Origin: a virus
Taxonomy: Duplodnaviria; Caudoviricetes
IMG/VR virus record: IMGVR_UViG_3300047181_000043
Span: 1 to 57,838 of that record
Direction: 5' to 3' (one strand)
Length of the DNA: 57,838 bases
The position numbers were made by a program, and so were the translations under genes. Under the pieces are notes generated by a model that was given only the letters and a program-made list of their open reading frames with translations, was not told where the DNA came from and searched no databases. This document shows, piece by piece, positions 1,005 to 57,770 of the stretch (position 1 is its first letter; each line of letters begins with the position of its first letter).

Positions 1005-1066
1005 GCCTAACGCTGAGGTCTACTGCAACTCGCATTTGGGGTTGTCAGTAGCACCGTTTGTTAGGC
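1005..1066 (-). other. attC-like integron cassette recombination site, 62 bp
   Basis: Minus strand: R'' GCCTAAC, spacer AAACG, L'' GTGCTACT (one extra G), G, extra A, CAAC, loop, GTTG, C, L' AGTAGAC, spacer CTCAGC, R' GTTAGGC. Confidence 0.85.
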
Positions 1067-1400
1067 TATGGGTTTCTTTGCAGTCCCTAATTGAGCATAG
1101 GACTTTTGGTGTTTTGTGTTCGTTGTATTCTACCATATCAAACGCTTCCTTTAGTGTTTTGTATGAGTTGATCCAATTCTCAAAAAAGTTCTCATCACAA
1201 ACGCTCCATAATTGTTCGCCAGTCTCATCATTATGATGGACGCAAATAATCATTGGGGTTACTCGCTCCCACATTACCGCTTTACCGCATTTTGAGCACC
1301 ATGTTTCTCTGTAGTTTCGCTCGATCCTTACACTCAGATTTTGGTGATGCTTTCCGTCATGGTGGACTTTTACAATTTCTACTAAACTTCGGCCGCGCAT
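1020..1400 (-). CDS. Hypothetical protein, cassette 2 ORF (CxxC motif; reads into attC)
   Basis: GGAG SD before ATG at 1400; flanked by GTTAGGCTA...TAGCCTAAC. Confidence 0.7.
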   Translation of the reverse strand: MRGRSLVEIVKVHHDGKHHQNLSVRIERNYRETWCSKCGKAVMWERVTPMIICVHHNDETGEQLWSVCDENFFENWINSYKTLKEAFDMVEYNEHKTPKVLCSIRDCKETHSLTNGATDNPKCELQ

Positions 1401-1414
1401 TGTATTCTCCATTA

Positions 1415-1446
1415 GCCTAACGCAGAGGTATCACCGTTTGTTAGGC
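1415..1446 (-). other. Internally deleted attC-like site, 32 bp
   Basis: GCCTAAC-AAACGGTG-AT-ACCTCTGC-GTTAGGC: both arms nearly identical to the 1005-1066 site, central stem missing; upstream gene's TAA lies inside GCCTAAC. Confidence 0.75.
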
Positions 1447-1842
1447 ATCCTCTTGTTCGTGGGTGTACTCGATCTCATAATCACGCCCATCATCCTTGAA
1501 GATGGAAAAACGAATACCGTCAGAGTTTGGTGTAGCGATATACATAAAATCGTTAGCACCGTGTATCTTCACGCATCGAGGGGAATCCGTATCAGAAACA
1601 GATACAGCAAACACATCATCATCGGGTGAGCATATGCCAACGGACTCAATCAACTTATTGAATTCATCTAGTGTCTGTGATGAGTTATCAAAGAACTCGG
1701 TTAGCTTACCACTAGGAACGCCAACCACAGTAACGTGATGTAAATCTACAAGGGATATATAGACGTGCTTATATTCTCCATCCAATAATCGAGTATCAAC
1801 CCTGTTGTATGTTCCTGTAATGATATTTCCATTGGTTTCCAT
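1441..1842 (-). CDS. Hypothetical protein, cassette 1 ORF (133 aa)
   Basis: AAAGGAG SD before ATG at 1842; stop codon inside the R'' box. Confidence 0.75.
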   Translation of the reverse strand: METNGNIITGTYNRVDTRLLDGEYKHVYISLVDLHHVTVVGVPSGKLTEFFDNSSQTLDEFNKLIESVGICSPDDDVFAVSVSDTDSPRCVKIHGANDFMYIATPNSDGIRFSIFKDDGRDYEIEYTHEQEDA

Positions 1843-1874
1843 TGTTTCTCCTTTCATTTCTTTTCGTTTCGTAT

Positions 1875-2046
1875 GCCTAACATCCAAGTTACCCCCGGAT
1901 TTCACATCCGTGTATCCAGAAGAAACTCGCGTTTTATACGGATAATATAATAAAAATTCAGGATAAAACGTAAATATTTTCCGGATAAGACTAAAGATTC
2001 CCGCTTTATCCAGATCCGGATAATGCGAAAATTGCATGATAAACTA
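1875..2046 (-). repeat. ~172-bp promoter/leader/attI-like module, left copy (inverted repeat of 57390-57562)
   Basis: Reverse complement aligns to 57390-57562 with about 20 differences by manual alignment; TTATCC repeats, AT-rich promoter-like tract, leader hairpin, ends GGGTAAC-TTGGAT-GTTAGGC. Confidence 0.95.
2039..2045 (+). promoter_or_regulatory. Putative late promoter ATAAACT (other copies: 7928, 21999, 23404, 26776-, 26791, 30797-, 33431, 35425, 44836, 57391-)
   Basis: Recurs just upstream of virion genes; analogous to the T4 late promoter TATAAATA. Confidence 0.75.
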
Positions 2047-7948: not shown

Positions 7949-8131
7949 ATGAAACGCATGAAAGTAGTACGAGTGACAAAGGAAGAGTTCGAGCTTGAGG
8001 ATGGCACCGTCCAGCCCATGATCGTGGATCTGGGCTATGTCCCAACCGTTGAAGAGTTCCAGCAGATGCTGGATGAGTCCTGCAAATTCGCAGGTATCGA
8101 GGTTGAGGAAGACAAAGATGCCAGTAAATGA
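7949..8131 (+). CDS. 60-aa acidic accessory protein of the IS607 element
   Basis: AGGAG/GAGG SD; overlaps the tnpA start. Confidence 0.7.
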   Translation: MKRMKVVRVTKEEFELEDGTVQPMIVDLGYVPTVEEFQQMLDESCKFAGIEVEEDKDASK

Positions 8132-8777
8132 AAATGACAGGATGATACGCATTCGAGAAGCATGCGAGATGCTTGGTGTTCACCAGAACACGTTGCGTAT
8201 GTGGACGGAACAGGGGAAGATCCAAGCATACCGTGGTGAGAACTCTGATCGTGGTCAGAGACGTTACCGTATTGGTGACATCAAAGCACTGCTTGGTATG
8301 AAGCAGTTGGATGCACCAGTTGAAGCACTTCCTGTAGCCATCTACTGTCGTGTGAGTTCACATGACCAGAAAAAACATGGTGACTTAGAGCGACAGAAAG
8401 GAAGGATGCTGGAATTCGCAGTACATAAGAAGTACCACGTCGAGTACATACTGGATGAAGTTGGTTCTGGACTTAATGATAAGCGAAAGAAGCTACATAA
8501 GTTGATGGAACTGGCAGAACAACATAAGATATCCAAAATCATAGTGGAACATAAGGATCGGCTGACTCGTTTCAACTACGAGATCCTTGTCCGTTTCTTC
8601 AACAGCCACGGAGTTTCCGTTGAATATGTGGAAGAAACGCTTGGTGGTACGTTTGAAGCGGAACTGGTGAAGGATCTACTTTCCCTCATCACCGTGTTTT
8701 CAGCGAAGCTGCATGGCAAGCGGAGCAAGGAAAACCGTGAGCGCACTAAGAAGATGAAGGAAGACGGATTGCTATGA
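8118..8777 (+). CDS. tnpA: IS607 transposase TnpA (MerR-like HTH + serine recombinase)
   Basis: IREACEMLGVHQNTLRMW HTH; YCRVSS, EVGSGLN, EHKDRLTRF, ELVKDL...FSAKLHG. Confidence 0.95.
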   Translation: MPVNENDRMIRIREACEMLGVHQNTLRMWTEQGKIQAYRGENSDRGQRRYRIGDIKALLGMKQLDAPVEALPVAIYCRVSSHDQKKHGDLERQKGRMLEFAVHKKYHVEYILDEVGSGLNDKRKKLHKLMELAEQHKISKIIVEHKDRLTRFNYEILVRFFNSHGVSVEYVEETLGGTFEAELVKDLLSLITVFSAKLHGKRSKENRERTKKMKEDGLL

Positions 8778-10582
8778 AGCACTTGGACAACTACAGGGAA
8801 ATGGATTCCACCTACTCGGTGGCATTCTTTCCCCACATGTTGTCCAGAAGCAAGAAGCGTGAGATCCTTCGCATGGCGAAGAAGATCCTTGCACTCAGGA
8901 ACGAAATATCAGAAATCGTACAGGGTGACCTGTTAAAGTTCCTGAACATGAGCAAGTTCGAGTTCTTCAACTACTTCAATCCGATCCTATCAGGAAGGAT
9001 CTCCAGTCATTTCATCAAGAAGATCATGGAAGATGTACATGAAGCATACCAGAGAAGATCCGAAGCGATAGATAAGCATATCCAGTTCCAGATAGTAACC
9101 TCATTGACTCCTGTATTCTACAAGCGTAGAACCAAGGACAAACAGGTTGGTGACCTGAAATCAATCACCAGAAAAACCAAGAAGACTGACATATCGATCA
9201 CATTAACCTACCTTGCTCGTTATGGTCATACGGGAACATTGCAGTTCCTTCGTGGCGCAATAGAGAATACAGAGGTCAAGGAAGACAAGACGTGGTTTTA
9301 TCTTAAATTGTTGGACATGTGTGATCGTTATGGATTTGGTAGGTTGATGACACTCGCTATGTCAAAACGTGAGCAAGTATATTCTCGTTACGAGGATCGT
9401 GGTGCTATCTGCTTCAGTTCCCTATCGTTCAAGGGAAGATCAAGAATAACACGTCCTATCGTAGCTCGTTCCTCCAAGAAGAATTCTAGGATCAGTCACT
9501 TCGTTGAGTTGTCATGGGAGTGGTCAGAGACGAAAGGTAAACGGAAGAAATCTGACACGATGTGCATTCCTGTTAAGTATAATGCTAAGTATCACAGGAA
9601 CCTAAAAAGATACAGCAACGGAACAGATACCAGCTATACGGTAGTTGTCCGTGGTAAAGATATTCATGTTGTGCTTACCCGTGATGGTAAAAGGTATGTA
9701 CCACTAGCAGAAATAGAGCAGGAGAAAGTTGTTGGTGCTGATGTGAATCAGAAGCATAACATGCTTTCCTGTAGTGATGGATTCACTGTAGATCATAACA
9801 GAGAATTGATTGATGATCTACAGAAAGAACTACTGAAGATAGATAAGAATCGGGAAGTCCACGACAAGCATCAGAAGCTCATCATCGAAGCCAAGAAGCA
9901 GGAAGCTAGGGATTCCGGTGACAAGTATATCAAGTCCAAGAAAGTTGCATACAAACCTACTCGTAAGGAACTTCGGATAATAGATGCATTGTCACGCAAG
10001 AATACCCACTACCAAGAACAGAAGATTGCAGAAATACTGAATCATATGGTGGCTTGTGGATTCAACCACATCGTCCTTGAGGACTTGGATGGATTCATTG
10101 GTGCGAAAACATATGGTGACACCGAAGGTGGTGTGAATACAGGTCGTCTTGGTAAAGCTCTACAACTTTCATCAATCAAGGATATCATTCTCCACATGGC
10201 AACCAGATACGGTGTTTCCGTGTCTCTAGTGCATAAGGAATATTCATCGAAGCAATGTCCGTTATGTGACTGCATCGATGACCTGAACAGGACATCACAG
10301 GAGAAATTTGTTTGTGTGAGATGTGGTTACAGTGATAACGCTGACCACAACTCATCAGTTAATTTGAAAATCCGGCTTACCTCGACCGTGTTAAGAGGGA
10401 AGTTGCTCACGCAACAGACTACCGGATACAGTGCGTTCTTGCCAAAGAACCTTCCTAGATGGAAGGTGAAGGATGCTCTGGAAAAATATCGTCATGGAAT
10501 GGATCTCGATCCATTCGGAAACTTCGTGGAGCCTAAAGTGGTCAGAAATGACCACTATGAAGTTCTGTTAGGTTTGCAGTGA
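8774..10582 (+). CDS. tnpB: TnpB RNA-guided nuclease, long form (602 aa), RuvC triad intact
   Basis: VVGADVN, IVLEDL, CPLC...CVRC zinc finger, NADHNSSVNL. Confidence 0.92.
   Translation: MKHLDNYREMDSTYSVAFFPHMLSRSKKREILRMAKKILALRNEISEIVQGDLLKFLNMSKFEFFNYFNPILSGRISSHFIKKIMEDVHEAYQRRSEAIDKHIQFQIVTSLTPVFYKRRTKDKQVGDLKSITRKTKKTDISITLTYLARYGHTGTLQFLRGAIENTEVKEDKTWFYLKLLDMCDRYGFGRLMTLAMSKREQVYSRYEDRGAICFSSLSFKGRSRITRPIVARSSKKNSRISHFVELSWEWSETKGKRKKSDTMCIPVKYNAKYHRNLKRYSNGTDTSYTVVVRGKDIHVVLTRDGKRYVPLAEIEQEKVVGADVNQKHNMLSCSDGFTVDHNRELIDDLQKELLKIDKNREVHDKHQKLIIEAKKQEARDSGDKYIKSKKVAYKPTRKELRIIDALSRKNTHYQEQKIAEILNHMVACGFNHIVLEDLDGFIGAKTYGDTEGGVNTGRLGKALQLSSIKDIILHMATRYGVSVSLVHKEYSSKQCPLCDCIDDLNRTSQEKFVCVRCGYSDNADHNSSVNLKIRLTSTVLRGKLLTQQTTGYSAFLPKNLPRWKVKDALEKYRHGMDLDPFGNFVEPKVVRNDHYEVLLGLQ
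10434..10579 (+). ncRNA. TnpB omegaRNA scaffold overlapping the tnpB 3' end (5' boundary uncertain)
   Basis: Hairpins 10449-10467, 10497-10516, 10537-10556 (GAAA loop); stem 10520-27/10557-64; pseudoknot-like pairing 10531-36/10568-73. Confidence 0.8.
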
Positions 10583-12796: not shown

Positions 12797-15700
12797 ATGA
12801 CACAACGAAATTCAAATTACCTCCCACTGAAGCTCACCAAAAACGCTATCAAGGTACTCGAAGCGCGATACCTGAAAAAGGTCGAAGGAAAGATCGTAGA
12901 AACCCCAGAAGATTTGTTCTACCGAGTGGCTGACGCCATGGCCAACGTCGATGAAAGATATGGCGCGAGTGCCGAAGAAATCGAAGCACTTCGCGTTAAA
13001 TTCTACAATATGATGGTAGAAGGAAAGTTCATGCCAAATAGCCCCGCACTGATGAACGCGGGAAAGAACAATGGCAACAGCTTCTCTGCATGTATTCACG
13101 GAGATTCACCGGTGTTGACTAACAGTGGTTATGTGCCTATGCGAGAAATATATGACCGGGTGAATTCAGGCGAGACTGTTATTGTATCTAATGGATTTAA
13201 TGAATGGGTCCCTGTATTAGCTGCCATAAATCAAGGTATTAAACCAGTATATAGGATCAATACACGAGCAGGTCGTTATGTAGATTGTACTTTAGATCAT
13301 AAATTCTATACATTCGAGCCAGGAAATAGAGATAATGGTGCATATGAAACCGGAAGCTTTAAATGGGCTCCCATTGGAGAAATTCCTTGTGGTAGGAGGT
13401 TGGCATATGGGATGCAGTCACCAATCGTGGAAGATAATAATGAAATTGATTCGGAGATAGCGTTAGCCGCCTGGATATTAACTGATGGAGGTTGCGGATG
13501 GTACAAGCAATCTAAGGGAACTACAGGGGAGTTTTTTGTTGGTGAAATTCAAGTTATAGATGATCGATCCCTAGATAACGTTATTAATCATATTAACAAG
13601 TTGGGATTTTCATATACACAAAAAGATATTTCAGGTGTGGGTGGAGTAGAACGATTTACTAGAATCAGATCATATGATAGAAAATTAGCTAAGTTTTGTG
13701 AAAAATTTGAGTTATTTAATAGAACTAACACAAAAATAGTGTCTTCCTTAATAAGAAATTCTTCGTATTCAAATAAGAGAGAATTTTTGCGAATCGTATT
13801 TGAAGCAGATGGATGTATAACAGGAACTGGAATAGGATTTCAATCTGTTTCTCAAGTATTAGTTGAAAACATTTCTGAGATGTTAGATTTATTTGGGATT
13901 GCTCATACCATAAATTTCAAAAAAGAACGCCGGGTAGGGAGATTGGATGGTTGGTCAATCCAAATTAATCACACCCGAAGTATCTTATTGTTTAAGGAAA
14001 GAATTGGGTTTATATCTGATCGTAAGCAATTGAAATTATCACAATGGCCGGAAAAGAATCCATATCCAGAAAATATAAAATATGTAGGTAATGAATATTT
14101 AGGTGAAGATGAAGTATTTGATATTCAAACCGCTATAGATGGGAATGGGAGTTTTGTTGTTGATGGTATTATTGTACATAACTGTTTTGTCCTACCTCTC
14201 AATGATTCTATTCGTGATATATTTACAACTGCTTTGAATACCGCCCTTGTACAGAAGGCTGGAGGTGGTACGGGATTTAGCTTCGACAAGCTTCGGCCGA
14301 CAGGCGATTTTATCAATAGCTCCGGTGGAACTACATCAGGTCCTATTTCCTTTTGGAAGGTACTCGCAGAAACTACCAATTCAATTCAGCAAGGATGTTT
14401 TGTAGGATCTACCCTTATTGGAATGCCTGGTCAGAACAAGCAGATCAGAGACATTAAAAAAGGTGATGTTGTCTATTCATATGATACTAATATAGGACAT
14501 GTAGTGTATAAGAAAGCTGCGTGTGATGCGTTCAAGACTAAAGAAAACGCACCCGTTTTTAAACTCTCAACGAATCGAGGACTTGATGTTTTCGTTACAG
14601 AAAATCATCAATTCTTACTTCGTAGTAATGATTACATAGAATTAAAGGATTTAGATTCTCGTTTGCCTATAATGTCCCTACTTCGCCGATTGGACGTTTC
14701 TCAAGTCGATGCCACATACCCAGCACAAACAACTGATGGAATTGATTATTCATTTGTGTCAAATAACTATTTAGATTCTGTATATGACACCGTAGTTGCG
14801 TCAATTGAATTTTCACATCATGAAGATGTGTGGGATTTTGAAGTTGAAGACACTCATAATTTTAGCGTGGTAGGAAATGATGGTGAGGGTATATTTGTAC
14901 ATAATTCCATGCGTCGCGGTGCAAACATGGGTATGATGACCATTACCCATCCTGATATTCTCAAGTTCATCACAGCCAAGCAAGATCTAAGTAAGTTCAC
15001 TAATTACAATATTTCGATCAAGATTCCCGATGCCTGGATGGTCGAGTATAAGAAATGTCCAGATGCTCCACACGTCGCTATTAATTTCCGTACTGGAGAT
15101 CGTTATGTTATTCCAAAGACAGTTCCGATCGAAACATATGAAATCAATGAGTTGATCAGATATGAAGATTATGTAGAGGGTTCTGTTAAAATTTGGACCA
15201 TGCGCGAAATCTTTGGAATCATTATTGATTGTGCTTGGAAAACTGGCGAACCCGGTCTTTTCTTTATTGATAAAGTCAATGAAAAAAATGCAACTCCTCA
15301 CGTTGGTGAAATCGAGGCAAGTAACCCCTGCGGCGAATTACCCTTACTCCCATATGAAGCTTGCAACTTAGGATCGCTAAATATTGCTGCATTTGTTACT
15401 GAAAATGGTCTTGACTGGGAATCCCTCGGACAATATATCAGAACCGCAACATATTTCCTGGATACCGTTATTGACGCGAGTCCTTTCCCAATTCCAGAGA
15501 TCAAGAAGATGTGCGATGAGAATCGCAAGATCGGTTTGGGTTTGATGGGATTTGCTGATGCGATGTTCCTGTTAGGAATCTCCTATAATTCAGATGAAGG
15601 AATTGAGTTCGGTCGCAAATTGATGAAGTTCATTAATGATACTGCACTGGATGAATCTGAATCGATTGCCAAGAAGAAGGGAGTATTCCCTAATTATGTA

Positions 15701-17071
15701 GGATCTCGTTGGGAGACCGAATGGAACCGAACCTTACGTAATGCCGGAGTGACAACAGTTGCCCCAACAGGAACCATTTCAATTATTGCGGATTGTTCTG
15801 GTGGCATCGAGCCAATGTTCTCGCTGGCATTTGAACGTAACGTGTTAAATGGCCAGAAGTTAATCGAAGTGAATAAGATATTTGAGAAGGTTGCTAAGGA
15901 CCGAGGATTTTATTCTCCGGAACTTATGGAACGTTTGGCTAAGGAAGGAACGCTTCAACATATTGATGAAGTTCCTGATGATATCAAGAAAATCTATGTA
16001 TGTTCTCATGATATCGCTCCAGAATGGCATATCCGCATGCAGGCAGCCTTCCAGGAATCCTGTAGTTCTTCCATATCCAAAACAATCAATATGCCCCACA
16101 CGGCCTCCAGAGAGGATGTGGAACAGACTTACTTGATGGCCTGGGAGATGAATTGCAAGGGCATCACGGTATACCGTGACGGTTGTCGCGATATGCAGCC
16201 CATGTCGCTTAAGAAGGAATCTGCCAAGATGGAGATTCCCGAAGCCAAGGAAGAGGCTAAGCATATCGAGGAACAGCAGATCGAATTGCAAAATATTTTC
16301 GTAGGCGTTCCTGAAGGCCAAATCATTTCTGATGTTTCGTTCCCAGATCGTTCCCACTCGGAGACCTATGTTATCCGCGCCGGCAAGAAGGGTTCAAAGA
16401 CGCACAAGAAGATATATACAACCCTAGCATTCGCGGATAAGGATTTGACTCGTCCATTTGCGATGTTTGTTAATTCCAATTCGTTCACCTCGAATGAAGT
16501 CACTGATGAGATTGTGAAGATTCTGAAGGCGCTTGCTAAGGAAAAGCTTTCTGAGGATGCGATCCATGCTTTGCGCGAATCCATGAAGGGCCAGAGTAAG
16601 ATTTCCCAGTTGATCCACATAACATCGGCTGTCGCCACTGTGGGAGTGACTGCGCAAGATATCATAGCAGTTCTTCCACATGAGAACAAGACTGACGAGG
16701 ATCCTGTGGTGACGGCGGACATTATTTCAATTCTTACCAAGCTTGCTGCGGAAAAGGGAATTCGCAAGGAATTGGTAGAGGATCTTGAAAAGAAGTATCG
16801 CAATCAGGTTAACGTGGTCAAGATTGCTCGTTTGATAGGCATGTTGCTTCGTCATAACGTTCGAATCTCGGATGTGGTTGAATCATTCGACCAGGTGCAA
16901 TTCCCAGTTACCTCATTCGTTTTCCAGATCAAGAAGTTGTTATCCAAGTTCATTAAGGATGGCACTGAAGTGACTGGCAAAACAGGATGTCCTGAATGTG
17001 GTGGTAAGATGGTCTACCAAGAAGGGTGTTTGAAATGTGCATCCGGCTGTGGTTGGTCAAAGTGCAAATAA
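12797..17071 (+). CDS. nrdJ: Class II (adenosylcobalamin-dependent) ribonucleotide reductase with two inteins
   Basis: FMPNSPALMNAG, GGGTGFSF, RRGANMG, GEPGLFFID, SNPCGELPL, TTVAPTGTIS, KGITVYRDG, C-terminal CPECG...CLKC. Confidence 0.95.
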   Translation: MTQRNSNYLPLKLTKNAIKVLEARYLKKVEGKIVETPEDLFYRVADAMANVDERYGASAEEIEALRVKFYNMMVEGKFMPNSPALMNAGKNNGNSFSACIHGDSPVLTNSGYVPMREIYDRVNSGETVIVSNGFNEWVPVLAAINQGIKPVYRINTRAGRYVDCTLDHKFYTFEPGNRDNGAYETGSFKWAPIGEIPCGRRLAYGMQSPIVEDNNEIDSEIALAAWILTDGGCGWYKQSKGTTGEFFVGEIQVIDDRSLDNVINHINKLGFSYTQKDISGVGGVERFTRIRSYDRKLAKFCEKFELFNRTNTKIVSSLIRNSSYSNKREFLRIVFEADGCITGTGIGFQSVSQVLVENISEMLDLFGIAHTINFKKERRVGRLDGWSIQINHTRSILLFKERIGFISDRKQLKLSQWPEKNPYPENIKYVGNEYLGEDEVFDIQTAIDGNGSFVVDGIIVHNCFVLPLNDSIRDIFTTALNTALVQKAGGGTGFSFDKLRPTGDFINSSGGTTSGPISFWKVLAETTNSIQQGCFVGSTLIGMPGQNKQIRDIKKGDVVYSYDTNIGHVVYKKAACDAFKTKENAPVFKLSTNRGLDVFVTENHQFLLRSNDYIELKDLDSRLPIMSLLRRLDVSQVDATYPAQTTDGIDYSFVSNNYLDSVYDTVVASIEFSHHEDVWDFEVEDTHNFSVVGNDGEGIFVHNSMRRGANMGMMTITHPDILKFITAKQDLSKFTNYNISIKIPDAWMVEYKKCPDAPHVAINFRTGDRYVIPKTVPIETYEINELIRYEDYVEGSVKIWTMREIFGIIIDCAWKTGEPGLFFIDKVNEKNATPHVGEIEASNPCGELPLLPYEACNLGSLNIAAFVTENGLDWESLGQYIRTATYFLDTVIDASPFPIPEIKKMCDENRKIGLGLMGFADAMFLLGISYNSDEGIEFGRKLMKFINDTALDESESIAKKKGVFPNYVGSRWETEWNRTLRNAGVTTVAPTGTISIIADCSGGIEPMFSLAFERNVLNGQKLIEVNKIFEKVAKDRGFYSPELMERLAKEGTLQHIDEVPDDIKKIYVCSHDIAPEWHIRMQAAFQESCSSSISKTINMPHTASREDVEQTYLMAWEMNCKGITVYRDGCRDMQPMSLKKESAKMEIPEAKEEAKHIEEQQIELQNIFVGVPEGQIISDVSFPDRSHSETYVIRAGKKGSKTHKKIYTTLAFADKDLTRPFAMFVNSNSFTSNEVTDEIVKILKALAKEKLSEDAIHALRESMKGQSKISQLIHITSAVATVGVTAQDIIAVLPHENKTDEDPVVTADIISILTKLAAEKGIRKELVEDLEKKYRNQVNVVKIARLIGMLLRHNVRISDVVESFDQVQFPVTSFVFQIKKLLSKFIKDGTEVTGKTGCPECGGKMVYQEGCLKCASGCGWSKCK
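13091..14182 (+). mobile_element. Intein 1 in NrdJ, 364 aa, with LAGLIDADG homing endonuclease
   Basis: SA|CIHGDS...TLDHKF...IIVHN|CFV; AAWILTDGG and LRIVFEADG motifs. Confidence 0.93.
14396..14905 (+). mobile_element. Intein 2 in NrdJ, 170-aa mini-intein
   Basis: QQG|CFVGST...TENHQF...VWDFEVEDTHNF...FVHN|SMRRGA; no endonuclease motifs. Confidence 0.93.
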
Positions 17072-38374: not shown

Positions 38375-39058
38375 ATGGCTGATAATACATCACCAAGCAC
38401 GACAATGTTCTACCAGAGTGGTATCGATACCATTCGGGATCCTGTAAGAAGTACCCGTTGGAGAATGTTCTTCGGAGCAGAGCTATTCAAGGCACTTCCA
38501 ATTAAACCAACTAATGGTACTCCATTTGATGGTGAAGCGGGAACCGACGAAGTTTCTATCCATATCAAGAGTTCCCAGATTCCTGGCGTTCGTATTGATT
38601 TAGATAAAATCTGGTATATGGGATTTCCTTCCAACTACGCAACTAATGTGCAGCTTGAAGGAGATATTCCTGTTGAATTCATTATGACTGAAGACATGCG
38701 TTCATTTGAGCTCGTATATGCTTGGGTAGAATCTGTAATCAATGCCGGCATTCTCGTAAATCCTACAGGCGGCGCCAGCCGTACTGCAGAAGCGGGACGT
38801 GCTCTTGGTTTAGGCACACATAAGGATGCACAGGATAGCGCACACACTGTTGTTCGCAATTCCGGAATTATCAAAACCAATTTGTACAACTGGCATACTG
38901 GTGCTGAAATTCTTACGGTGAATCTGATCAATGCTATCCCAACTAGCATCGATCCTACTTCTCTACAATATCAACAGGGTCAACTTGTATCGTTTAGGAC
39001 TAATATCCATTACGATCGATTCTCACTGTCGATCCCAACTCCATATAGTGCAGGTTAA
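38375..39058 (+). CDS. gp19: Tail tube protein, gp19-like
   Basis: Directly after sheath; RSTRWRM, SSQIPG, LINAIPTSI, FRTNIHYD. Confidence 0.8.
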   Translation: MADNTSPSTTMFYQSGIDTIRDPVRSTRWRMFFGAELFKALPIKPTNGTPFDGEAGTDEVSIHIKSSQIPGVRIDLDKIWYMGFPSNYATNVQLEGDIPVEFIMTEDMRSFELVYAWVESVINAGILVNPTGGASRTAEAGRALGLGTHKDAQDSAHTVVRNSGIIKTNLYNWHTGAEILTVNLINAIPTSIDPTSLQYQQGQLVSFRTNIHYDRFSLSIPTPYSAG

Positions 39059-39059
39059 T

Positions 39060-39089
39060 AAAAAAGGCGGTTTTAAAACCGCCTTTTTT
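39060..39089. terminator. Bidirectional terminator
   Basis: AAAAAAGGCGGTTTTAAAACCGCCTTTTTT perfect palindrome. Confidence 0.9.
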
Positions 39090-39582
39090 AATATATTCCT
39101 TTCTTCATTTTTTCTAGTTCAACTATGGTACGTAGATTATTTGGGATGTACCTACATTGATCTAGAAGATTCTTTAGCCATGCTAGATATGCCTTCTGCT
39201 TGGTAAGATCAGCCTTTGCCTTTGGAACATCACCATAACCATCGATGATGTTTTCCATATCCTTTCCTTTTAGATCATAACCACGATATTCTTTTTGAAT
39301 TAATTCGACAGCCTTGCTTTTTGCCACCGCTACCTTTTCTTCAAGATCAGCGGATACAATTTGTTCATGTAGCATCATGGTATTTATATAATTAAATATT
39401 TTACCCCAGGCATGCTGCATGAGGCGCTGACACTTATCCCAATCTAAAGTGCCATCTTTTTTTATATATTCCGCGCTTTTATTTAGATAGTTTTCAATTT
39501 TTACTAAAGTATCATTGGTGATTACAGATGGCAATGCGGGAAATTCCGGATCGCCTGTCATTATTGGTCCATTTGGTGTCAT
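39088..39582 (-). CDS. uvsY: Recombination mediator UvsY
   Basis: Helical protein with DMENIIDG...LKNLLDQ...NLRTIVELEK UvsY-type C-terminus; TTATCTTTG upstream. Confidence 0.7.
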   Translation of the reverse strand: MTPNGPIMTGDPEFPALPSVITNDTLVKIENYLNKSAEYIKKDGTLDWDKCQRLMQHAWGKIFNYINTMMLHEQIVSADLEEKVAVAKSKAVELIQKEYRGYDLKGKDMENIIDGYGDVPKAKADLTKQKAYLAWLKNLLDQCRYIPNNLRTIVELEKMKKGIY

Positions 39583-57389: not shown

Positions 57390-57562
57390 TAGTTTATCAA
57401 GTCAATTTCGCATTATCCGGATATGGATAAAACGGGAATCTTTAGCCTTATACGGAAAAAACTTTCGTTTTATCCGGATTTTTTATTATATTATCCGCAT
57501 AACGCGAGAGTTTTCTCCTGGATACACGGATGTGAAAACCAGGGGTAACTTGGATGTTAGGC
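57390..57562 (+). repeat. ~172-bp promoter/leader/attI-like module, right copy (inverted repeat of 1875-2046)
   Basis: Aligns to the reverse complement of 1875-2046; ends GGGTAAC-TTGGAT-GTTAGGC. Confidence 0.95.
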
Positions 57563-57578
57563 TAATGCGAGGAACATT

Positions 57579-57770
57579 ATGGACGCAAATCAAGTAGAAA
57601 AATCTCTTAGAACTCTTAGTGAATTACTCATATGCTTTCAATCTTGGGAACCTGAGTCTCGCGTTATGGGTAATGTGAAATCAAGTGACGCATCCGACGC
57701 TATAAGGATTTCAATAAATGCCATAATTAATAGTTACCTTTATTATAAAAATATATGTTATATTGTATAA
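57579..57770 (+). CDS. Hypothetical small protein, first ORF after the right attI-like site
   Basis: GAGGA SD; starts 16 nt after GTTAGGC. Confidence 0.65.
   Translation: MDANQVEKSLRTLSELLICFQSWEPESRVMGNVKSSDASDAIRISINAIINSYLYYKNICYIV

Follow-up and report, generated by a model that had tools for sequence, protein, structure and literature searches.

The left end of the window (the whole stretch of DNA analyzed here, 57,838 bases) carries on its minus strand a compact array of small genes and repeated sites. Read along that strand, the array runs from a promoter-like module of ∼170 bp (1875–2046) through a lone GTTAGGC at the junction of this module and the first cassette (1875–1881), cassette 1 (460 bp), a shortened attC-like site of 32 nt (1415–1446) and cassette 2 (410 bp) to a full-length attC-like site of 62 nt (1005–1066). 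Beyond the full site lie four small ORFs on the same strand (811–984, 515–736, 357–521, and 139–360), with no attC between them, and then a terminator-like hairpin (109–135, inverted repeat I19) that ends the small-ORF run. The ORF of cassette 1 (1441–1851, minus strand, 136 aa) has its TAA stop inside the R'' box of the shortened site, and the ORF of cassette 2 (1020–1412, minus strand, 130 aa) passes through R'' of the full site (..HSLTN..) to stop inside the hairpin. Neither cassette ORF has a Pfam family, nor does any of the six ORFs of the array. The C-terminal half of the cassette 2 protein is 43% identical to cassette ORFs in another viral record, G004, and in metagenome contig L044; otherwise the protein has a single relative in a large protein collection. 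The first-pass annotation, which had singled out positions 1005–1066, had not seen the shortened copy, the lone GTTAGGC, or the ORF that ends inside the hairpin.

The window is an entire IMG/VR virus record, classed as linear. CheckV puts its completeness at 14%, which implies a genome of roughly 400 kb and hence a large phage. Its genes include those for a family B DNA polymerase, a ribonucleotide reductase, a DnaB-like helicase, a tail sheath protein, tape-measure-like proteins, and a gp25-like baseplate protein. The INPHARED phage collection held no close or near-identical relative of this phage, and the gp25-like neighbor had no relative in the viral contigs searched. The ORF for the ribonucleotide reductase large subunit (12797–17071) is, at 1424 aa, far above the usual length, with its main match confined to residues 705–1424; it may be a fusion or carry an inserted element. 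Between the convergent ORFs 38375–39058 (+) and 39088–39582 (−) lies a 38-nt near-perfect palindrome (39056–39093), probably a two-way terminator. An IS607-like pair occupies 8037–10582, in which a MerR-HTH and serine recombinase gene (8037–8777) is followed by a 602-aa TnpB-like gene (8774–10582) with a Cas12f1-like TNB domain. A diverged copy of this pair lies in viral record G001 (about 13,500–16,150), its tnpB part seemingly split into several ORFs. Bases 1–105 of the window are 100% identical to G001 13792–13896, the two records being otherwise dissimilar there; contig depth over these bases is ∼6 times that of the array, and they are a multi-copy element that forms the end of the contig. 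Broad synteny of the window with G001 was rejected, the common parts being only the promoter-like module, the 105-bp end piece, and the IS607-like genes.

The minus strand of the window, from which the local small genes are read, is the top strand of the 62-nt site. On this strand, the R'' box GCCTAAC (1066–1060) and the spacer AAACG are followed by GT[G]CTACTG, an [A], CAAC, an 11-nt loop region, GTTG, CAGTAGAC, and a second spacer, and the site closes with the R' box GTTAGGC (1011–1005). The order R''/L''/L'/R' agrees with what had been read in the first pass, provided that the "top strand" of that reading is taken to be the window minus strand. Folded as single-stranded DNA, the bottom (+) strand forms the expected R/L-box hairpin, comprising a 7-bp R box, an unpaired spacer of 5 + 4 nt, a 15-bp stem, and a loop. 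Two single-base bulges, T1045 and C1052, decorate the 3' arm only and are separated by 6 bp of stem; they are the same C and T that had been predicted to bulge on this strand. The fold has an energy of −13.4 kcal/mol (z = −4.0), equalled in none of 200 shuffles. The corresponding values for the minus strand are −12.8 kcal/mol and z = −3.3, equalled in 1 of 200 shuffles.

The shortened copy at 1415–1446, which is listed in repeat families D5 and D9, has the R boxes and spacers of 1005–1066 and is without the L-box stem, both bulges, and the terminal structure and loop. It is probably a deletion derivative that now recombines poorly. The heptamer GCCTAAC occurs nine times in the window, where 3.35 are expected, and only 1 of 100 shuffles gets to nine. 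Paired R boxes, by contrast with the reversed control pattern (no occurrence), are found in the window at 1005–1066 and 1415–1446 only.

According to the excerpts of PMC5027507 consulted, IntI1 needs a 6-bp stem between the extrahelical bases, which face the AAC triplet; the first extrahelical base of the bottom strand is usually a G, and the last is the conserved T. The core sites of 1005–1066 fit RYYYAAC/GTTRRRY. Both bulged bases face the AAC triplet from the other arm of the bottom-strand hairpin, and the last of them is T, the conserved one. The first is C, where the published usual base is G. The window site therefore fits all the attC requirements in these excerpts save the identity of the first bulged base and, since the wording there is "usually," the C is a departure rather than a failure. 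The earlier description of the site as canonical goes a little too far in view of this C. By analogy, the crossover would fall between 1010 and 1011.

The hairpin has no T/U run on its 3' side on the gene strand, and a terminator scan of the window gave no output at 1005–1066, which agrees with the first-pass view that a terminator is unlikely here. An Rfam search also returned nothing at these positions; this blank is uninformative because Rfam misses the known aadA1 attC as well.

Sites of the same family were collected with patterns derived from the two copies in the window, which makes the family count a minimum and favors sites similar to those two. It comprises at least 87 site hits, 13 in viral records and 74 in metagenomes. 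Pattern scans located it in four viral records besides the window: G001 (34 kb, 9% complete), with four sites behind the same promoter module; G004 (31 kb), with at least five sites and a truncated last one; G005, with one site and a truncated one; and G002, with one site, as has the near-identical record G003. Portal, head-closure, and terminase proteins are encoded in G004 and G005 and a tape-measure-like protein in G002; these three are phages of lineages other than that of the window, and the family is common to at least three phage lineages. The cassettes of G004 include genes for an N6/N4 methyltransferase and a radical-SAM protein.

An alignment of 13 sites from five viral records shows conserved ends. 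With the structure written by hand, 92.9% of the cells pair and 12 of the 20 pairs show a compensatory change. None of 500 shuffles matched these sites on four of five measures, and slid partners pair in 26%–46% of cases. Covariation is concentrated in the L-box and inner stems (CTACTG, TAGCTG, AACCCG, AATCCG), and the R-box pairs are nearly constant. A covariance model built from these 13 phage-contig sites only, R1, returned nothing but family members over 157 kb of collected sequence. In this first run of R1, none of them outscored 1005–1066 (75.6 bits, E 3e-19, hit on the minus strand only). Its sole other hit in the window was the shortened site (40.2 bits), also on the minus strand.

In metagenomes, R1 identified 74 sites on 27 contigs, co-oriented within every contig, 45–287 nt in length (median 83), and spaced 222–2773 bp apart. 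Site length in the whole family spans 32 to 287 nt, with conserved ends and a variable terminal structure. When the 74 sites are fitted to R1, an alignment that leans toward the structure of that model, 95.3% of positions pair and 13 of 20 pairs are compensatory; shuffles reached these values in 0 of 500 cases on four of five measures, and on the remaining measure, further pair types, 6 of 500 did so. On the top strand of 67 distinct sites, G occupies the first bulge in 65 and A the second in 62; CTAAC is present in 66 and GTTA in 65. The associated ORFs, promoterless and encoded by the top strand, frequently end in R'', and the sites follow 3' of them in co-oriented arrays in the window, G001, G004, and the metagenome contigs. 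One class within the family, of 83–85 nt, is very uniform and forms arrays with ∼1-kb cassettes.

Several members of the family depart from this plan. The arrays of G004 (L021, about 1396) and G005 (L022, about 1024) end in a half site, which consists of R'' and the L'' arm only and is followed by unrelated sequence; in G004, a terminator-like hairpin comes next. At the contig start of the G005 locus (L022 1–330), tandem TCGTCGCTC-like units of ∼9 nt lie upstream of the first cassette gene. Some sites have a common insert of ∼210–290 nt between their L arms (L032 1877–2088; L050 1103–1314 and 8269–8479; L051 about 2570–2782; L052 6255–6545). The same insert occurs in a Fibrobacteria metagenome-assembled genome (MAG), away from any detected site, and could represent a small mobile element directed at attC hairpins.

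We tested the model in the reverse direction by running R1, which contains phage-contig sites only, on proven attC sites. A filter-free search of 50 kb of plasmid R100 returned a single strong match, which is the 60-nt site directly behind aadA1 and lies on the gene strand (36.6 bits, E 2e-8; 12 bits for the runner-up). In two other class 1 integrons, hits fell behind all seven cassette genes (estX, a HAD-family gene, aadA2, cmlA1, aadA1, qacL, and dfrA14), six with E < 0.01 and one with E 0.13, and nothing else was found at E ≤ 1 in 30 kb. In total, R1 found eight of the eight attC positions expected in the three class 1 integrons, and no position besides these reached E ≤ 0.1. The model aligns the aadA1 site end to end with both bulges in register. 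Both have the A bulge; at the first top-strand bulge, aadA1 has C where the phage family has G. The IntI-type attC geometry put forward in the first pass is upheld by the structural features tested, by covariation within the family, and by this recognition of class 1 attC sites.

A breakpoint within the family lies at the R' box. Contigs L028 and L037 have different upstream cassettes and attC bodies and are the same from the R' box on, with 94% identity over 499 bp. Exchange between the G and the TT of R' would leave this very pattern, an indirect sign of recombination. Among the contigs of the three runs compared with the window, there was no attC-bounded deletion. Two joints, 105→1005 and 105→1052, were considered as excision products and rejected: the content between their ends is unknown, and they resemble G001-type contigs.

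The array begins at the promoter-like module, of which the window has two copies. The left copy (1875–2046, minus strand) includes TTATCCGGATAA-like repeats and a sigma-70-like site (1974–1947); the right copy (57390–57562, plus strand) likewise ends in GTTAGGC and is followed by a different small ORF (57579–57770). The copies are 88% identical, and the identity breaks off exactly at GTTAGGC. On their far side the genes also differ, with a gp25-like baseplate gene beside one copy and a 216-aa ORF beside the other. There are 15 TTATCCGGATAA-like repeats in the window, against 4.2 expected, and 7 of the 15 fall within the two module copies. The module holds four to five of them, spaced about 21–35 bp apart, and they look like binding sites of a regulator.

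The region is present in three freshwater-sediment runs, and no RNA run is among the sequencing runs listed with it. Contig depth over the module exceeds that over the array in both run X1 (∼265 versus ∼30) and run X2 (56 versus 11), indicating that the module is multi-copy. On the cassette side, contigs part from the window sequence at 1875/1876 (two contigs), 1871, and 1862; on the far side they do so at 2029 and 2046. The module is thus a repeated unit with different first cassettes after it. Within the viral collection it is found in the window and G001 only, and exact scans for the module end gave nothing beyond G001. Compared with the attI regions beside Fibrobacteria-type intI genes, the module shows no significant likeness, and on this ground we rejected the idea that it is a copy of a host attI. 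The GTTAGGC at 1875–1881 may be an attI-like junction. The module itself may be a landing site of the attI kind, one half of an attC, or simply a promoter recombined through sequence homology. A near-identical short leader (TAATGCGAGGAA..ATTATGGA) follows GTTAGGC in unrelated cassette ORFs (window 57563–57580; L021 about 1590–1611; L011 12356–12375), as though the R' end carried a translation-start module with it.

No tyrosine recombinase (PF00589) is encoded in the window or in the five other viral records, no IntI1-like ORF was found in those five records or the 27 metagenome loci, and the viral collection yielded no close IntI relative; because the contigs are mostly short and the window represents only ∼14% of its genome, these searches do not establish that an integrase is absent. 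The array differs from a complete integron in having no intI beside it. Two attC sites are the minimum stated for a CALIN in the excerpted text of PMC9892861, and the window has that number with no integrase nearby, narrowly so given that the second site is degenerate. The array is, on this definition, a small attC cluster without an integrase.

A scan of bacterial genomes with a gap range of 28–58, which leaves out the dominant 83–85-nt class, gave nothing. A scan for that class had hits in a Fibrobacteria MAG (two contigs), a Fibrobacteraceae MAG (one contig), and a Syntrophaceae bin (the end of one contig). The Syntrophaceae hit makes mis-binning possible, and the link to a host rests on metagenome bins. 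In the Fibrobacteria MAG, an array of at least five sites lies on a 51.8-kb contig, with cassettes of roughly 1–1.6 kb. The same MAG has an intI-like gene broken by a stop at a contig end, and R1 found no sites beyond the array or beside this broken gene over 51 kb. The integron integrase of the Fibrobacteraceae MAG scores 303 bits against an NCBIfam cut-off of 265 and has the expected tyrosine-recombinase domains. In both MAGs, the region upstream of intI ends in AAATGGGGTGTTAG. The G+C content of the window (40%) is compatible with that of the Fibrobacteria MAG contigs (32%–38%). The suggestion made in the first pass, that a search for the attC family in bacterial genomes could identify the host, has thus led to arrays of Fibrobacteria-type MAGs. 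We infer a host of this type for the window phage; the integrase is most likely supplied by the host, and phages and Fibrobacteria-type bacteria probably trade small gene cassettes.

From established attC behavior, the site could be expected to work as follows. The bottom (+) strand, once single-stranded, would fold into the R-box/spacer/L-box hairpin, in which the bulged T1045 and C1052 would mark the correct strand for binding by an integron integrase. The enzyme would cut between A1010 and C1011, and the strand would then be exchanged with that of a partner site, either a second attC or the GTTAGGY junction that heads an array. In this way, units of ∼410–460 bp (1011–1420 and 1421–1880) would be cut out, inserted, or swapped, and the cassettes would be read from the multi-copy, phage-specific promoter module that ends exactly at GTTAGGY.

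Given its structure, its family, the layout of the array, its likeness to proven attC sites, and the family-level breakpoint at R', the sequence at 1005–1066 is very likely an attC that forms the 3' end of a cassette in a short, integrase-less array (CALIN) of a large phage. The most substantial competing account accepts the descent from a real attC and holds that the site is a relic, a passenger that came with captured cassettes, is no longer recombined, and persists because it is young or harmless. Such a history would suit the lack of an integrase in any phage contig searched, the neighboring copy without L boxes, the half sites at the ends of the G004 and G005 arrays, and the lack of any attC-bounded joint. 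It sits poorly with an intact site that gave the best R1 score at the first run, with a family kept through compensatory changes in at least three phage lineages, and with the presence of a homologous cassette ORF in different arrays, and we consider it unlikely.

Two further accounts deny that an integron integrase is involved and are far less probable still. Because the small genes on either side are co-transcribed and a stop codon falls within it, the hairpin might act at the RNA level, as an mRNA terminator, a processing site, or a translational coupler, in the manner of the promoter-stem-loop cassettes (PeSLs) of T4-type phages, and attC sites are themselves thought to contain weak terminators (PMC9892861, excerpts). 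However, the hairpin has no U tract; its bulges and R boxes are conserved while the stems covary, which a plain terminator would not need; and the model built on it finds the DNA recombination sites of class 1 integrons, with the same family present in arrays of a MAG lineage that has IntI. We accordingly give this account very little weight. It is just as improbable that the sites serve another phage-encoded recombinase, either the serine recombinase at 8037–8777 or an unseen enzyme elsewhere. The MerR-HTH and Resolvase protein is encoded 6 kb from the array, and a relative is encoded 1.9 kb from the array of G001. Its gene is, however, directly upstream of the TnpB-like gene, and a serine recombinase in that position is the order typical of IS607-type elements. 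The protein is missing from G002, G004, and G005, which have the same sites, and we rejected it as the enzyme of the array for this reason; the geometry of the site, moreover, is that of an integron integrase substrate.

Returning to an attC in a phage CALIN, a broader picture can be sketched, possible but more doubtful than the assignment of the site itself. Large phages of Fibrobacteria-type hosts may run "integron outposts," in which the module would be the landing site and the host integrase would swap the cassettes. The host enzyme would be active during infection, and swaps would take place among the chromosomal array of the host, this phage, and unrelated phages of the community. The best-known cargo of integron cassettes is resistance genes; according to excerpts of two recent preprints, anti-phage defense systems travel in them too. 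If outposts exist, phages would sample small genes, perhaps for counter-defense (G004 has an orphan DNA methyltransferase), from the same cassette pool as the reported anti-phage defense bank of bacteria. The site family, shared by the phages, many freshwater-sediment contigs, and the arrays of an uncultured Fibrobacteria-type lineage, suggests a concrete route for this, with phages and hosts drawing on one pool. The locus is also a system open to test, with the intact 62-nt site, its naturally occurring 32-nt deletion form, and the module end as a candidate landing site. Some ∼97% of the family has C in place of G at the first bulge, and this natural variation could be used to probe the part of that base in strand choice.

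Compared with the class 1 attC of aadA1 in R100, a 59-base element of a mobile integron cassette, the window site has the same RYYYAAC/GTTRRRY core sites, unpaired spacer, and two bulges 6 bp apart, the same bulged A on the top strand (T on the bottom), a similar length of ∼60 nt, and the same position just 3' of an ORF. In contrast, its first top-strand bulge is G rather than C, its spacer beside R'' is one base shorter, and it has no intI1 or attI1 nearby and a phage as its carrier. Near-uniform attC sites are a mark of sedentary chromosomal integrons of the Vibrio VCR type. The uniform 83–85-nt class in arrays of ∼1-kb cassettes, together with IntI in the Fibrobacteria lineage, resembles these integrons, whereas the window site is a short 62-nt form, borne by a phage, in an array of two sites only. 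An intrinsic terminator is likewise a stem-loop between genes; the window hairpin differs from it in having no T/U run and in its conserved bulges and invariant flanking heptamers. The PeSLs of T4-type phages, each a sigma-70-type promoter joined to a terminator, are repeated regulatory modules beside small novel genes in the variable regions of large myoviruses, and homologous recombination between them allows these genes to shuffle (PMC2839356, excerpts). The ∼170-bp module behaves alike in being multi-copy with different genes after it, but the window hairpin has no U tract and has integrase-type geometry.

The literature searched held no description of this attC family or of integrons of Fibrobacteria-type bacteria, and no report of an attC family common to phages and Fibrobacteria-type hosts. 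The kind of element is already known, as CALINs in virulent phages have been published: according to excerpts of Qi et al. (2023; PMC9892861), attC clusters without an integrase occur in 17 phages, virulent ones included, IntI1 recombined five of six phage attC sites tested, and DNA methyltransferases are among the phage cassettes. To the extent that these excerpts allow comparison, the window array agrees with those phage CALINs in its two or more attC sites without an integrase, its co-oriented cassettes, and, in the related array of G004, a methyltransferase cargo. It differs in belonging to another site family, common to at least three phage lineages and also present in Fibrobacteria-type chromosomal arrays, and in that the array of the window lineage hangs on a multi-copy phage promoter module. 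What sets this locus apart is a single site family that spans phage lineages and an IntI-encoding bacterial lineage, together with the C at the first bulge, the natural mini-site, and the attachment to the promoter module.
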